DNA of 26,764 nt from the NCBI GenBank assembly GCA_963583225.1, contig CAUZVJ010000001.1, positions 1 through 26,764 of the forward strand, written 5' to 3'. The position numbers and the translations under genes were made by a program. Source of the DNA: Verrucomicrobiia bacterium (GTDB lineage: Bacteria; Verrucomicrobiota; Verrucomicrobiia; Limisphaerales; UBA1096). The number at the start of each line of letters is the position of its first letter. The stretch's first letter is position 1. Under the pieces are notes generated by a model. That model was given only the letters and a program-made list of their open reading frames with translations. It had not been told where the DNA came from and did not search any database. This document shows positions 1 through 25,617 of this stretch, piece after piece.

Positions 1-1359
1 CATGGCCTGATTGAACAAGTCGCGCAGCATTACCCGGCAGTAACCGTCACTCTTTGCCTTAAATCGCCACGACATGTCGCGGTTTGCCACGTTGAACTCG
101 CGCCCGCCGGGATTGTTTTTCATCTCGTAAAACTCCTTCAGCGGTTCCGGCGACTCTTTGCCATCTTTTGCAACACCCACCAGTTGAGCGGTGACGTATG
201 GGTTTGTCATGTTGCCTAGGCGTTGCGAAAAAACGTCGAGCCAATAGACCTCATCTTTTTTGACCGGCAACTTGAAAAAATCAACATCACGGGCGGGAAA
301 AAAACTTCCAGCAATCATGCCGGGCACTGCAATAACTTGAGCACGATTCGCCGTGTCATTATCGCCCTGCTCCATCGTCAACGGGTTGTCCGGACGCAAA
401 CCGACAAAGAATGGATTGCTGGCAACCCTGCCCTTGGCCAAGCGGAAAACAGCCCCGTCCAAGACCACGGCAGACGGCGGGAGCGCCACGCCGCCGGGCA
501 GCGCTGCGCGACTGAGTTCGCTAAGTTTCACGGTCAATCGCTCCAGCGCTTGGCCATCGGTGGCTTTGAATCCGGCGGGTTTTGCGCCGGGTAGATTTCT
601 TCCAAAAAGAGTCACCTTCGACTCGCTAAAACTGGAAACAACCGGTGGTGAAACAAAATCCACATGCGGACCACTGCTGTTCTCCAAACGAAAAAAATAT
701 TCCGTGCCACCGCTGAAAGTTGCATCGTGAATCTGGACGAAACAGTCGCCGTCCGCCGGTGCCGTGTAGTCGATCAAGCCATCAGAATTTGCCCGGGCCA
801 AGCGCTCCCCTGCCCCGTTTCTGAGCAACATGACGGGGTTCATGCGGGAATCGATTGCCGCTGCTGAAACACGCAGCAGCAGGCGTTGTCCTTTCTTTGC
901 CTCGATGCGAAACCATGAAGACTGCCTCGCCACTGCGACTCCATTGACCACCGAATCAGCCCCAAGCGCAGCGGCAGTTTTGAGTGTTGAGTTGCCGCTT
1001 GGGCTTCGAGTTTCCGCCAGCGAACTTACGGCGAACAACCGGGAGTTGGACAGGCCAAGCGCCCCGGCAAACCTCACGTCATAAACTCCGCTTGGGACAT
1101 CAGCAGCCACACGAACTTTGAATTTTCGTTCAGCGGCGTTGGTCACTTGCACCGAAATACCCGGATGAGAAAAGCGTAACTCCGTCGCGCCCTCAAGGTC
1201 ACCACCTTGCACCTGCACCTCGGTCTCCGCGCCAATCTGGCAACCCATTGGAAACAACGCAGTGATGCGGGCGGTCGGCAGTTGACCAAGCGCTTGAGCA
1301 GTTGCGATGCAAAACAGCGGGACAACTCCCCAGCGCCTGAAAAGTCGGATCAACTTCAT
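1..1359 (-). CDS. PPC (pre-peptidase C-terminal)-like repeat exported protein, PVC 'putative serine protease precursor' type; runs off the left edge
   Basis: Not in the ORF track because there is no stop in the window. Manual translation from ATG at 1359: MKLIRLFRRWGVVPLFCIATAQALGQLPTARITALFPMGCQIGAETEVQVQGGDLEG...YDVRFAGALGLSNSRLFAV...DNDTANRAQ...DVDFFKL. It has a signal peptide, is open to position 1, and this family usually lies beside DUF1549/1553 genes. Confidence 0.75.
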   Translation of the reverse strand, partial: MKLIRLFRRWGVVPLFCIATAQALGQLPTARITALFPMGCQIGAETEVQVQGGDLEGATELRFSHPGISVQVTNAAERKFKVRVAADVPSGVYDVRFAGALGLSNSRLFAVSSLAETRSPSGNSTLKTAAALGADSVVNGVAVARQSSWFRIEAKKGQRLLLRVSAAAIDSRMNPVMLLRNGAGERLARANSDGLIDYTAPADGDCFVQIHDATFSGGTEYFFRLENSSGPHVDFVSPPVVSSFSESKVTLFGRNLPGAKPAGFKATDGQALERLTVKLSELSRAALPGGVALPPSAVVLDGAVFRLAKGRVASNPFFVGLRPDNPLTMEQGDNDTANRAQVIAVPGMIAGSFFPARDVDFFKLPVKKDEVYWLDVFSQRLGNMTNPYVTAQLVGVAKDGKESPEPLKEFYEMKNNPGGREFNVANRDMSWRFKAKSDGYCRVMLRDLFNQAM

Positions 1360-1370
1360 GCGGTGACTGA

Positions 1371-1384
1371 CGCTTGGCCAAGCG
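1371..1384. repeat. Intergenic palindrome copy CGCTTGGCCAAGCG
   Basis: Perfect 14-mer between the DUF1553 gene stop (1408) and the PPC gene start (1359). Confidence 0.9.
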
Positions 1385-1407
1385 GGACAATTCAACACGG
1401 GCCAGCC

Positions 1408-3912
1408 TCAGTGGTTGAAGAGGAACTCCTTGGTGTTGGCCAAGGCCCACAGGATGTCTTCGTAACGTTCCTTGGTTTTATCGGCAGGCTTGCCGTCCTT
1501 GTCGAGTGACTCGCGAGTCAAATAGGCAAGTGCCACGTCGGCTTCCTCCCTGCGAGGCAGCCTCGCGAATGCCTGAAAGTAAAGGCCGTTGATTTTTGCC
1601 GCGTGATCCCGGCCCTTGTCGGCGGCGAGCCTGGCGGCGCGCCCGTCCTTGCGCGCCAATTGCTCGTGTATGCTTTTCGCGTTAAACAAGTGCAGGCTTT
1701 GGGCCAGGCTGGCTTCCTGTGAGCGCTCGCACTCGCAGGCGCTTGATGAGTCCGGCCGCCCAAACACACTCAGAAAATAGTTGGAGCTGTTGTAGCTGTT
1801 GTCCGGAAGGCAGACCGCGCGTGTGCCGACCGGCAAGCCGTCGAAGTTGCTCTTGGCCAGAATGAGATCATTCAATGAGTCGTACAGCACTTCCGCTGTG
1901 AGGCGCTTGGGCTGGAAGCGCGAGTAGTAATGCTTGTCCTTTGCGTTGTGCCGGTTCGGAACAGAACTGAGTTGATACGTGGTTGACGAGGCGATGACCC
2001 GAACCAACGCTTTCAGGTCGTAGCCGGTTTTTTCAAAATGATCCGCCAACGCATCGAGCAGCCTGGGATGGGTCGCCGGGTTGGTCGAACGGAAGTCATC
2101 CTCGGGATCGACCAGGCCGCGGCCGAAGAAATGCTTCCAGTAACGGTTCACGAGTGTCTTGGAAAACAGCCGGCTGCGGTCTTCGCGCATCCAATCAACC
2201 AGACGATGTCGCGGGTCGTCAACCGGCGCGATCGTTAATTCGCCGCTGCCCAAGCCGGCCGGCTTCACCGGCTTGTTGGTCTTTTTGTTGGTCACCTGCG
2301 CCACGCCGGCCCGGTGAAAAACGATCTCCTCGCCCGGGCGACCGGAGGGGGCCTTGCCGACGCGCGAGAAAAACGCCATGAACCGGTAATAGTCGTCCTG
2401 CGACCACTTTTCGTATGGATGATGATGGCACTGCGCGCACTGCAACCGCGTGCCGAGAAACAACTGCGCAGTGTCCTCCATCTGCGCCCGCTGGGAACTC
2501 ACCTGCTTGAACCAGGCAGACGCCGGGCTTTGGTCAATCCCGCCGGAAGCCGCCACGATTTCGCGCACAAACCGATCGTACGGCTTGTTGTTGTACAAGC
2601 TCTCCTTGATCCAGTCGTAAAAGGCGATCGTCGTTCGAAGCTTCGCCCCGTTGGCCCGCTTGTTGCGCAGCAGCGACGACCATTTGTTGGCAAAATACTC
2701 GGCGTACTCCTCACTGCGGAGCAACTGCTCGATCAGTCGCTGGCGCTTGTCCGACGCCGCGTCTTCGAGAAAGGATTCCGCCTCGGCAACAGTTGGGAGG
2801 CGCCCGGCGATATCAAGTGTCACACGACGAAGATAAGTCGAGTCCCCCGCCACCTCCGATGGCGGCATGCCGACCTGCTTCCACTTCGCAAAAATAAAAC
2901 GGTCCACGAAGTTCTTCCCGGCCGGCAGGTTGTCCACCGGGGCGCCCAACGGAACCGATGCGCGAAACACCGATGCCTTGTCCTGATAGCGAACCATCAC
3001 CGCGATCTCACCCGAATCCCCCCCGGCGGTCACCAGGCCGGTGTTGTCCGCCTCGGCGTACTCACGGTTGTTCGCCTCGTACACGGCAGAGTGGGTGATG
3101 TCCTCGACCGACCCGTCGCTCATCTTGGCCAGGACGACGAGTTGCTGGCGAGCGCCTGGCTTCATGATGCGCTCGGGAGGATGCACCTCGATGGCTTCAA
3201 GGCTCGGATCGTCTGGCTTGCCGTACGGCATTCCCTGGCGTATCCACTTGACGATCGACTTGTAATCAAACGAGCCCGCGTCAATGCGCGAGCCACCGCC
3301 GTGCGGCAACTGGCCGGACGCCTTGAGCAAAAGCAGGCTGCGCTCGGGTGCGGCTGGGAAAATGCGGCGACCGCGCGCCTCCCGGAGCAGGTACTCGTAA
3401 TCCTCCTGCGGTTCGAAGCCAAGCAGGGAGAGCTTGAAACCGTTCTGGCCGCTGGACTTGCCATGACACCCACCGCTGTTGCATCCATGCTTGGTGAAAA
3501 GCGGGACGATCGAGTTGGCAAAGTTCACCGGCTTTTCGCTGGAAACCGCCTTCACCTCGAACGGAATCGTGGCTGTCTCGCCCGCTTGGGTGCGGGCGGT
3601 GATGACACCGGTGCCGTTGGCCAAGGGCTCCACCAAGCCATCAGTGATTCGCACCAGGCCGCTTGGCTTGGCCGTGAGGGCGACTTCGCGTGTTTGATCG
3701 GCAACAGACCCATCGCCGAGTGATCGTGTGACCACCAGTTGCTGCCGGGCGTCAGCACCGTGAAGTGTAACGCGGTTCAGGCTCTCGCCTCCCCAACCCG
3801 GTCTCGATATTGCGAGTTCGGCCAGTACTGCCTGGGCTCCGAACAACCCAAGACCCAACATTCCTGTCAAGCACGCAACCCTCCTGTAAAATGCCGATAA
3901 ATCAATAGCCAT
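1408..3912 (-). CDS. DUF1549/DUF1553 (PSD1) domain protein with N-terminal Ig-like (Big_2-type) domains
   Basis: Motifs GCNSGGCHG, RRVTLDIAGRLPT, AQLFLGTRLQCAQCHHHP, VNRYWKHFFGRGLVDP, ATHPRLLDALA, WALANTKEFLFNH. Start at MAIDL (3912) chosen; the track starts at 3975. Confidence 0.88.
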   Translation of the reverse strand: MAIDLSAFYRRVACLTGMLGLGLFGAQAVLAELAISRPGWGGESLNRVTLHGADARQQLVVTRSLGDGSVADQTREVALTAKPSGLVRITDGLVEPLANGTGVITARTQAGETATIPFEVKAVSSEKPVNFANSIVPLFTKHGCNSGGCHGKSSGQNGFKLSLLGFEPQEDYEYLLREARGRRIFPAAPERSLLLLKASGQLPHGGGSRIDAGSFDYKSIVKWIRQGMPYGKPDDPSLEAIEVHPPERIMKPGARQQLVVLAKMSDGSVEDITHSAVYEANNREYAEADNTGLVTAGGDSGEIAVMVRYQDKASVFRASVPLGAPVDNLPAGKNFVDRFIFAKWKQVGMPPSEVAGDSTYLRRVTLDIAGRLPTVAEAESFLEDAASDKRQRLIEQLLRSEEYAEYFANKWSSLLRNKRANGAKLRTTIAFYDWIKESLYNNKPYDRFVREIVAASGGIDQSPASAWFKQVSSQRAQMEDTAQLFLGTRLQCAQCHHHPYEKWSQDDYYRFMAFFSRVGKAPSGRPGEEIVFHRAGVAQVTNKKTNKPVKPAGLGSGELTIAPVDDPRHRLVDWMREDRSRLFSKTLVNRYWKHFFGRGLVDPEDDFRSTNPATHPRLLDALADHFEKTGYDLKALVRVIASSTTYQLSSVPNRHNAKDKHYYSRFQPKRLTAEVLYDSLNDLILAKSNFDGLPVGTRAVCLPDNSYNSSNYFLSVFGRPDSSSACECERSQEASLAQSLHLFNAKSIHEQLARKDGRAARLAADKGRDHAAKINGLYFQAFARLPRREEADVALAYLTRESLDKDGKPADKTKERYEDILWALANTKEFLFNH

Positions 3913-25475: not shown

Positions 25476-25555
25476 AGGTTGAATCTCGGCAAACGCTAGC
25501 AAGTGGGGAGTAATCGTCAAACATCAATTGGCCATCTCGTTTGTTGAGCTAACAG

Positions 25556-25590
25556 GGGTTGGTGCTGTCACACGCGGCACCAACCCTTTT
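25556..25590 (+). terminator. Intrinsic terminator-like hairpin
   Basis: GGGTTGGTGC (25556-25565) pairs with GCACCAACCC (25577-25586), followed by TTTT. Confidence 0.6.
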
Positions 25591-25601
25591 ATCTAAAATC
25601 T

Positions 25602-25617
25602 AAGCGCTTGGCCAAGC
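25602..25617. repeat. Palindrome copy AAGCGCTTGGCCAAGC
   Basis: Read directly; on the minus strand it begins about 2-3 nt after the stop at 25621. Confidence 0.88.

Follow-up and report, generated by a model that had tools for sequence, protein, structure and literature searches.

Why a single palindromic word, CTTGGCCAAG, should recur throughout the genes and spacers of a 26,764-nt stretch of DNA from an uncultured marine member of the Verrucomicrobiota (referred to below, at its full length, as the window) is the question that this locus raises. The window is contig C1 of G000, a metagenome-assembled genome (MAG) of 2.38 Mb in 322 contigs that is approximately 60% complete and has a GC content of 60.4%. 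An earlier note on this DNA had counted 15 perfect copies of this 10-mer and 28 copies of the 8-mer TTGGCCAA by hand, and had claimed that they represent a sequence-maintained, genome-wide signal, resembling highly iterated palindromes (HIPs) or DNA uptake sequences (DUS), that is new for bacteria of the Planctomycetes-Verrucomicrobia-Chlamydiae (PVC) group. The analysis reported here bears out that claim, and suggests that the palindrome is probably a family-specific "self-DNA" signal for natural transformation, maintained by transformation.

Abundance, anatomy and range of the palindrome

Both hand counts were reproduced exactly, and compare with 0.02 copies of CTTGGCCAAG and 0.91 copies of TTGGCCAA expected from dinucleotide-preserving shuffles of the window, none of 100 of which came up to either figure. 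When up to three mismatches were allowed, the 16-mer GCGCTTGGCCAAGCGC occurred 21 times (0.37 expected), and the window also contained 20 variants of the 10-mer with one mismatch and 30 with two. The near-matches that had been cited at positions 546, 796, 8408 and 15201 are genuine variants that keep a half-site, but the one at 1053, with three mismatches, is weak. Across G000, CTTGGCCAAG was the most abundant of all 10-mers, with 1,910 copies in 2.38 Mb relative to 2.8, 3.4, 8.3 and 21 copies expected under Markov models of order 0, 1, 2 and 3, respectively.

Alignment of all copies confined the information to the ten core bases and, on each side, three graded flank positions (G 0.69, C 0.62, then S), giving an extended form GCG-core-CGC, and no conservation was seen past these three bases on either side. 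This palindromic, graded information profile resembles the binding site of a dimer. Concatemers of 1.5 or 2 units with a 12-bp period accounted for 7% of the copies and were 2.4 times commoner outside genes, and 93 of 341 non-coding copies lay 0-10 nt behind a stop codon. The corresponding RNA hairpins were weak (approximately -7 kcal/mol, with z-scores near 0 and without T-runs), folding no better than shuffles, on which ground a role as terminator or RNA hairpin was rejected; because the hairpins are weak, we treated the placement at gene ends as secondary.

The multi-unit forms and the copies behind stop codons are the observations that might point to a mobile or structural repeat, such as a repetitive extragenic palindrome (REP), a miniature inverted-repeat transposable element (MITE) or a terminator hairpin, and the earlier note had also raised the possibility of an adapter or assembly artefact. 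Since information ends three bases beyond the core, the word is not a MITE or REP. Furthermore, 82% of the copies are in genes and in all three frames, MAGs assembled independently in many studies carry copies at orthologous positions, and contig ends held 71 copies where 77 were expected. Taken together with the hairpin folds, these flank, frame, orthology and contig-end results refute the repeat and artefact explanations, to which we assign a negligible probability.

Gene calls, which are crude and came from our own simple caller (87% coding), placed 1,567 of the G000 copies in genes and 343 outside them (0.75 and 1.14 per kb, respectively). Within genes, the palindrome was read as nnC TTG GCC AAG (Leu-Ala-Lys, LAK) in 910 cases, as CTT GGC CAA G (Leu-Gly-Gln, LGQ) in 560, and in the third frame in 97. 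Shuffling synonymous codons within genes left only 86 +/- 8 copies and shuffling codon order left 11.5, so the enrichment did not vanish under a codon-preserving null, the outcome that had been named as fatal to the claim. At the protein level, no tripeptides were more over-represented than LAK and LGQ, which reached 4.5 times expectation; next came GQA and AKR, which are encoded by the flanks. Because these tripeptides lead the enrichment and the synonymous shuffle leaves 86 copies, the DNA word is imposed on proteins and not the reverse. The motif codons fell in poorly conserved protein segments, with 49% identity to the motif-poor clade described below, compared to 75% for the proteins overall (13 sites).

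The spacing of copies along the genome was Poisson-like and indistinguishable from random (coefficient of variation 0.97 vs 0.98), and regular spacing was rejected. Motif density was roughly halved in 5-kb windows of low GC content. The longest motif-free stretches were accessory DNA, comprising a molybdo-enzyme cluster on a contig of 55% GC and two giant surface-protein genes; stretches of at least 5.5 kb without a copy would be expected 0.02 times in the whole of G000, and an Rfam search of a motif-free stretch returned no match. Their lack of the palindrome fits a mark of resident DNA, and could also reflect mis-binning. The first of them, G000:C35:1-13524 (13.5 kb, 55.4% GC), lacks even 8-mer partial motifs and carries a cluster of the xanthine/CO-dehydrogenase type (MoCoBD, XdhC, MobA-like); it was either acquired recently or mis-binned.

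To what extent other organisms share the word was addressed by scanning one genome per prokaryotic species for the exact 16-mer. Repeated matches were found only in MAGs of marine Verrucomicrobiota (Tara Oceans, ALOHA, oxygen-minimum zones and the Black Sea), with single, chance-level matches in other taxa and in viral contigs, among which no motif-rich phage was seen. The 26 species of the genus of G000 make up its entire, monogeneric family; the MAGs compared here are from uncultured organisms and are 60-93% complete. The density of the 10-mer was 373-923 copies per Mb in 19 of these species, 291 in G011 and 133 in G041, and 12-23 in a motif-poor clade of five (G001, G004, G006, G008 and G024), while a reversed-word control gave 1-19 copies per genome. 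A signal present at 133-923 copies per Mb in 21 of the 26 congeneric species, and spread over the genome of G000, is not limited to the one contig on which it was noticed. Elsewhere in the order, 16 families gave 0-3 copies when scanned for the 12-mer, though all have comEC, and no alternative "dialect" was seen in the motif-poor lineages in the 11-56 kb of sequence inspected per genome. The palindrome is thus restricted to one family of uncultured marine Verrucomicrobiota. Our full-text searches of the literature turned up no account of the word, nor of HIPs or uptake sequences in Verrucomicrobia.

We then compared individual sites between species, using codon alignments of eleven syntenic genes and pairwise alignment of approximately 255 kb of relatives' DNA to G000. 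The codon alignments contained motif sites that were common to up to eleven motif-rich species and absent from the motif-poor ones. Of 13 motif-rich genomes aligned at moaA, 11 had the copy at 13163..13178 of the window, G000 among them (10 of the other 12), the variants being in G011 and G041; both motif-poor genomes aligned lacked it. Similarly, a copy in mreC (21634..21649) recurred in 9 of 13 aligned motif-rich genomes besides G000, and the motif-poor species had a gap or unrelated codons. At the serA site (10954), the motif-poor species and some divergent ones encode K-LGQ-V where the rich clade encodes R-LGQ-A; these two amino-acid changes complete the flanks of the palindrome, which has therefore been built partly by protein change. 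In the pairwise alignments, 46-60% of G000 motif sites were perfect in relatives; the corresponding figure for control 10-mers was 7-31%, and the word was 2-7 times better conserved than these at orthologous positions. Residual copies in motif-poor G001 that could be aligned to G000 (n = 16) coincided with a perfect G000 copy in six cases and with a one-off variant in six more. Because these relics match G000 sites, we conclude that the ancestor of the family was already motif-rich and that the motif-poor clade lost more than 95% of its copies.

Loss of the palindrome and of competence genes

The abundance of the palindrome in the family followed the presence of three genes of natural transformation, comEC, dprA and comM, each of which was detected in 14 of the 26 genomes. 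In 17 genomes nothing pointed to a loss, and there the genes were detected in 41 of 51 gene-by-genome tests, matching the completeness of the assemblies; the five motif-poor species gave 0 of 15, and G041 and G011 each gave 0 of 3. Since comEC was detected in every one of the 16 outgroup families, the lack of it inside this family is a derived loss. Where contiguous contigs covered the syntenic slots, these held 9-516 bp, or an unrelated gene in G041: the comEC and dprA slots of G011 were reduced to approximately 59 and 516 bp, the dprA and comM slots of G041 to approximately 340 and 49 bp, and the comM slot of G008 to approximately 9 bp. With tblastn, neither the comEC and dprA slots nor the comM slots of G008 and G041 yielded any remnants. 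These absences are real deletions. Two further genomes carried damaged genes. G012 seemed to be a counter-example until an in-frame internal deletion of comM was found that removes residues 39-307 (its comEC and dprA loci lie at contig ends), and in G005 residues ~73-469 of ComM are missing and dprA is split across two frames.

Other components of the machinery did not discriminate: the ComEA-type HHH_3 domain was present in rich and poor genomes alike, and Type IV pilus secretins were retained in every genome, including those from which the motif has gone. The former comEC slot of G041 (C40, L232:631-2076) contains an open reading frame (ORF) of 481 amino acids with trypsin-like protease and Endonuclease I domains, followed by a TPR protein; a gene for DNA import has given way there to one for a nuclease that is likely secreted. 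We also observed a second, divergent DprA-like gene (109 bits) in G010 (C11:9913-10518), beside the orthologous dprA.

In a tree of 24 genomes, the species formed poor clade A, rich clade B and clade C, with G041 on a long basal branch in clade C and G011 beside G002. The five lineages with deleted or decaying competence genes had the lowest motif densities within their own clades. In clade B, the two genomes with damaged genes (687 and 705 per Mb) were below the others (734, 909 and 923), and in clade C, G041 (133) and G011 (291) were below a range of 373-822, while clade A had only the 12-23 copies per Mb noted above. The motif deficit grew with branch length. At the level of single sites, G011 evolved at the background rate, with a per-base identity to G000 of 0.849 at motif sites and 0.833 elsewhere and with 26% of motif sites perfect (22% for GC-matched controls), whereas sites were protected in two genomes as distant as G011, namely G019 (0.902 vs 0.846; 43% perfect) and G010 (0.934 vs 0.843; 67% perfect). 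This comparison agrees with decay in G011 and is not proof of it, as G019 and G010 also differ from each other.

The earlier note had offered three mechanisms: a DNA-uptake or recombination signal, a site for a dimeric nucleoid protein, and a HIP driven by a methyltransferase. We favour the first because abundance tracks comEC, dprA and comM. The second does not explain the link to competence genes, and is part of a broader explanation in which the word is the site of a chromosomal protein (for the nucleoid, segregation or repair) that is kept by selection, and in which its decay reflects loss of that protein, or a change in lifestyle or mutation, that coincided with the loss of competence. 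The dimer-like profile described above fits such a protein, and the GC content does drop in the same lineages that lose the word. However, this explanation needs a hypothetical factor that disappeared on five occasions, each in company with three dedicated transformation genes; it is hard to motivate why selection should keep approximately 1,900 intragenic sites at a cost to proteins; and the compositional shift predicts a change of about 2-fold in word count, as opposed to the 40-60-fold seen. We therefore regard it as improbable.

Even less probable is the third mechanism, in which an orphan methyltransferase, together with a Vsr-like or mismatch-repair bias, would convert near-matches into the word. 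The word does nest GGCC, TGGCCA and GCGC, which are target types of restriction-modification (R-M) systems, and the closest palindromic analogue, HIP1, has an effect on transformation that is methylation-dependent (PMC13756078, PMC4390886). None of the five Pfam families of DNA methyltransferases that we searched followed the motif. The C5 family (PF00145) was found in 2 of 26 genomes, one rich (G010) and one poor; the N4/N6 family (PF01555), searched in the same 26, in one poor genome only. In the most complete genomes, the Dam-type family (PF02086) was confined to poor G008, the gamma-class family (PF02384) gave only marginal matches of 20-25 bits (20 bits in rich G013), and the Eco57I/TaqI-type family (PF07669) was absent from five rich ones with a completeness of 84-93%. 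The C5 enzyme of G010 and the marginal G013 match were the sole ones in rich genomes to exceed the cut-off. A search for Vsr, made in G000 (60% complete) only, was negative, and the one-off variants of the palindrome showed no special excess of deamination products at GGCC. Methyltransferases, nearly missing from the rich genomes and most numerous in poor G008, were accordingly rejected as a correlate of the motif. G008, which belongs to clade A and lacks the competence genes, holds the majority of the DNA methyltransferases found in the genus, namely two C5, three N4/N6 (one match with six internal stop codons) and one Dam-type. R-M content in this genus is inversely related to transformability.

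The palindrome as a probable signal for natural transformation

The hyper-abundance of the word, its maintenance at the DNA level, its one-family range, its ancestral origin and its repeated loss together with competence genes are established. To account for them, we propose that a dimeric component of the machinery for DNA uptake or early processing would prefer DNA that carries the word, and that fragments bearing it would be taken up and recombined more often. Such an uptake bias, acting as a molecular drive, would write and rewrite the word wherever the chromosome tolerates it, and loss of comEC, dprA and comM would stop the drive and leave the copies to decay by ordinary mutation. We infer that drive, and not selection, maintains the word, and that it would act at uptake rather than after it. 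A bolder version, in which the word is a true uptake sequence read as a palindrome by a dimeric receptor, the five losses show the drive, and the loss of transformation lets GC content fall from 60% to 40%, is one that we put forward tentatively, as having somewhat less than an even chance of being correct.

The question of where the word acts is the one on which a related explanation differs. The word may be linked to transformation and yet serve after uptake, by protecting or recombining incoming DNA, or as a hairpin in single-stranded DNA that is handled by DprA or ComM, with no specificity at the outer surface. This would give an identical co-loss of comEC, dprA and comM, the last two of which act inside the cell; it agrees with the retention of Type IV pilus secretins even where the motif was lost; and a palindrome does form a hairpin in single-stranded DNA. 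The weakness of that hairpin (again approximately -7 kcal/mol, with a z-score near 0) argues against it, and we know of no precedent for a methylation-independent sequence tag that works after uptake. We consider action after uptake unlikely, although less so than a chromosomal protein site.

Several points weigh against a signal for uptake. The organisms are uncultured, and the support comes from sequence comparison of MAGs. Known uptake sequences are asymmetric, whereas CTTGGCCAAG is palindromic, and G000 has approximately 57 prepilin-type genes, from which no receptor candidate was singled out. The tree was built in quick mode from eleven proteins and rooted at its midpoint, and is a weakness of the argument. 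The most recent losses, in G005 and G012, still leave approximately 700 copies per Mb, which fits a lag in decay, if weakly. G019 and G010, which both retain the genes, also differ significantly from each other in motif conservation, so that G011 by itself is not decisive. Finally, GC content falls together with competence loss, from approximately 60% in rich genomes to 57% in G011, 50% in G041 and 37-41% in clade A, a range found entirely inside one GTDB genus. This change in composition alters the expected word count only about 2-fold, compared to the 40-60-fold difference observed, but a shift in mutational regime is confounded with the loss of transformation, of which it could be a consequence (through lost GC-biased gene conversion) or a parallel cause.

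The prepilin-type genes of G000 share a near-identical N-terminus, GFTLIELLVVIAIIAILA (for example C124:2700-6836 and C88:808-2418), an expansion typical of PVC bacteria, and many of them carry LAK or LGQ copies of the motif in the variable region of the signal peptide just before the cleavage site.

The copies found in the window are listed in Table 1. The thirteen 8-mers that lack the outer C/G pair represent copies that are incomplete or in decay. One perfect copy (5138) lies inside the ORF at 4755-5444 on the plus strand, in which the RNase P protein domain occupies residues 107-214 of 229; either the true start of this ORF is internal, or it is an rnpA with an unusual N-terminal extension.

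Table 1. Copies of the palindrome in the window, with their location and reading frame or distribution
Position	Form	Location	Frame or distribution
433..442	CTTGGCCAAG	in minus-strand ORF 1-1398	Leu-Ala-Lys (nnC TTG GCC AAG), from ORF coordinates
1373..1382	CTTGGCCAAG	25 nt downstream of stop of PSCyt2/PSD1 gene (1408-3975, minus)	
4046..4055	CTTGGCCAAG, extended form CCGCTTGGCCAAGCGG	spacer, 6 nt behind miaE stop (4062-4700, minus)	
5138..5147	CTTGGCCAAG; further TTGGCCAA 19 nt downstream	in rnpA-like ORF (4755-5444, plus)	LAK
9891..9906	perfect 16-mer GCGCTTGGCCAAGCGC	thrS-serA spacer; 16-mer 2 nt and core 5 nt after thrS stop	
10954..10963	CTTGGCCAAG	in serA	Leu-Gly-Gln
11518..11537	1.5-unit copy (CCAAGCG + CTTGGCCAAG + C)	starts immediately after serA stop	
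13163..13178	15 of 16 bases of extended palindrome	in moaA	R-LAK-R
13373..13382	CTTGGCCAAG	in moaA	LAK; lineage-specific, common to G014 only
13563..13572	CTTGGCCAAG	in moaA	LGQ; common to G007, G010 and G041
15118..15137	1.5-unit copy	spacer between convergent genes for pilB-like ATPase (stop 15113) and RNase G (stop 15187)	
20558..20567	CTTGGCCAAG	in minus-strand ORF 20471-21031 (mreD position)	LAK
21634..21649	15 of 16 bases of extended palindrome	in mreC	A-LGQ-A
24526..24546	1.5-unit copy (GGCCAAGCG + CTTGGCCAAG + CGG)	starts 4 nt after stop of glucuronyl-esterase-like gene	
25604..25619	intergenic copy	upstream of ankyrin-repeat gene, in lower-density part of window	
1436, 3617, 4392, 5157, 5873, 6253, 9761, 18415, 18822, 19098, 20052, 21149, 21689	TTGGCCAA without outer C/G pair (13 copies)		

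Relation to known systems and significance

The systems that this palindrome most resembles are the DUS of Neisseriaceae, for which the receptor is ComP (PMC3868556), and the uptake signal sequences (USS) of Pasteurellaceae (PMC7811141, PMC2817400, bioRxiv 10.1101/2025.10.24.684340). It shares with them a frequency near one copy per kb, a short core flanked by graded positions and an occurrence in genes as well as spacers; a bias in reading frame, an imprint on the proteome and a preference for weakly constrained protein segments; an apparent enrichment just behind genes, a "dialect" confined to one family and one-off variants that form a mutational shadow; and a tie to the genes of natural transformation. 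DUS and USS, by contrast, lack symmetry, and only inverted pairs of them form hairpins; the word described here is a perfect palindrome, and its own hairpins are weak and without T-runs. It also differs in belonging to another phylum, the Verrucomicrobiota, and to bacteria that are free-living, marine and uncultured.

HIP1 (GCGATCGC) and the alternate highly iterated palindromes of cyanobacteria (PMC4390886, PMC5861425, PMC13756078, bioRxiv 10.1101/2024.09.10.611283) offer the other close parallel. There too, the palindrome is hyper-abundant in all frames and in spacers, can be extended palindromically, is conserved at orthologous sites above background and is missing from particular lineages of the group (for HIP1, the picocyanobacteria). 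Recent work ties HIP1 to competence, in a methylation-dependent manner (PMC4390886, PMC5861425, PMC13756078), and to Type IV pilus genes. However, DmtA and DmtC, both orphan methyltransferases, have their target sites within HIP1, while the motif-rich genomes studied here are nearly without the five methyltransferase families searched. The core described here is 10 bp long rather than 8, and its link to comEC, dprA and comM comes through repeated, synteny-verified loss.

A third comparison is with very-short-patch repair by Dcm and Vsr, which enriches CCWGG in Escherichia coli and needs a C5 methyltransferase and Vsr. In that case as well a short palindrome is enriched, there by a bias in repair and not by selection on proteins, but the enrichment is far smaller and the site far shorter, and in our genomes C5 methyltransferases and Vsr (the latter searched for in G000 only) do not track the motif.

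To our knowledge, the existence of genomic uptake sequences is settled for only two families, both proteobacterial, and the function of HIP1 has been argued over for 30 years. The family studied here would add a third, unrelated lineage with an uptake-type word, with no methyltransferase involved, and, if the bolder version given above is true, the first uptake sequence outside Pseudomonadota, the still-debated HIP1 aside. It also provides a natural experiment, with five separate losses affecting the same three competence genes and a fading of the word that follows the time since each. This makes it testable whether such words persist by transformation-dependent drive or by selection, whether uptake sequences are the same kind of thing as palindromic HIPs, and whether natural transformation holds genomic GC content up through GC-biased gene conversion. 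Should members of the family ever be cultured, the 16-mer GCGCTTGGCCAAGCGC would give a practical handle for the design of donor DNA. For the organisms themselves, a self-DNA signal would imply natural transformability, with a preference for their own kind of DNA, in abundant marine Verrucomicrobiota.

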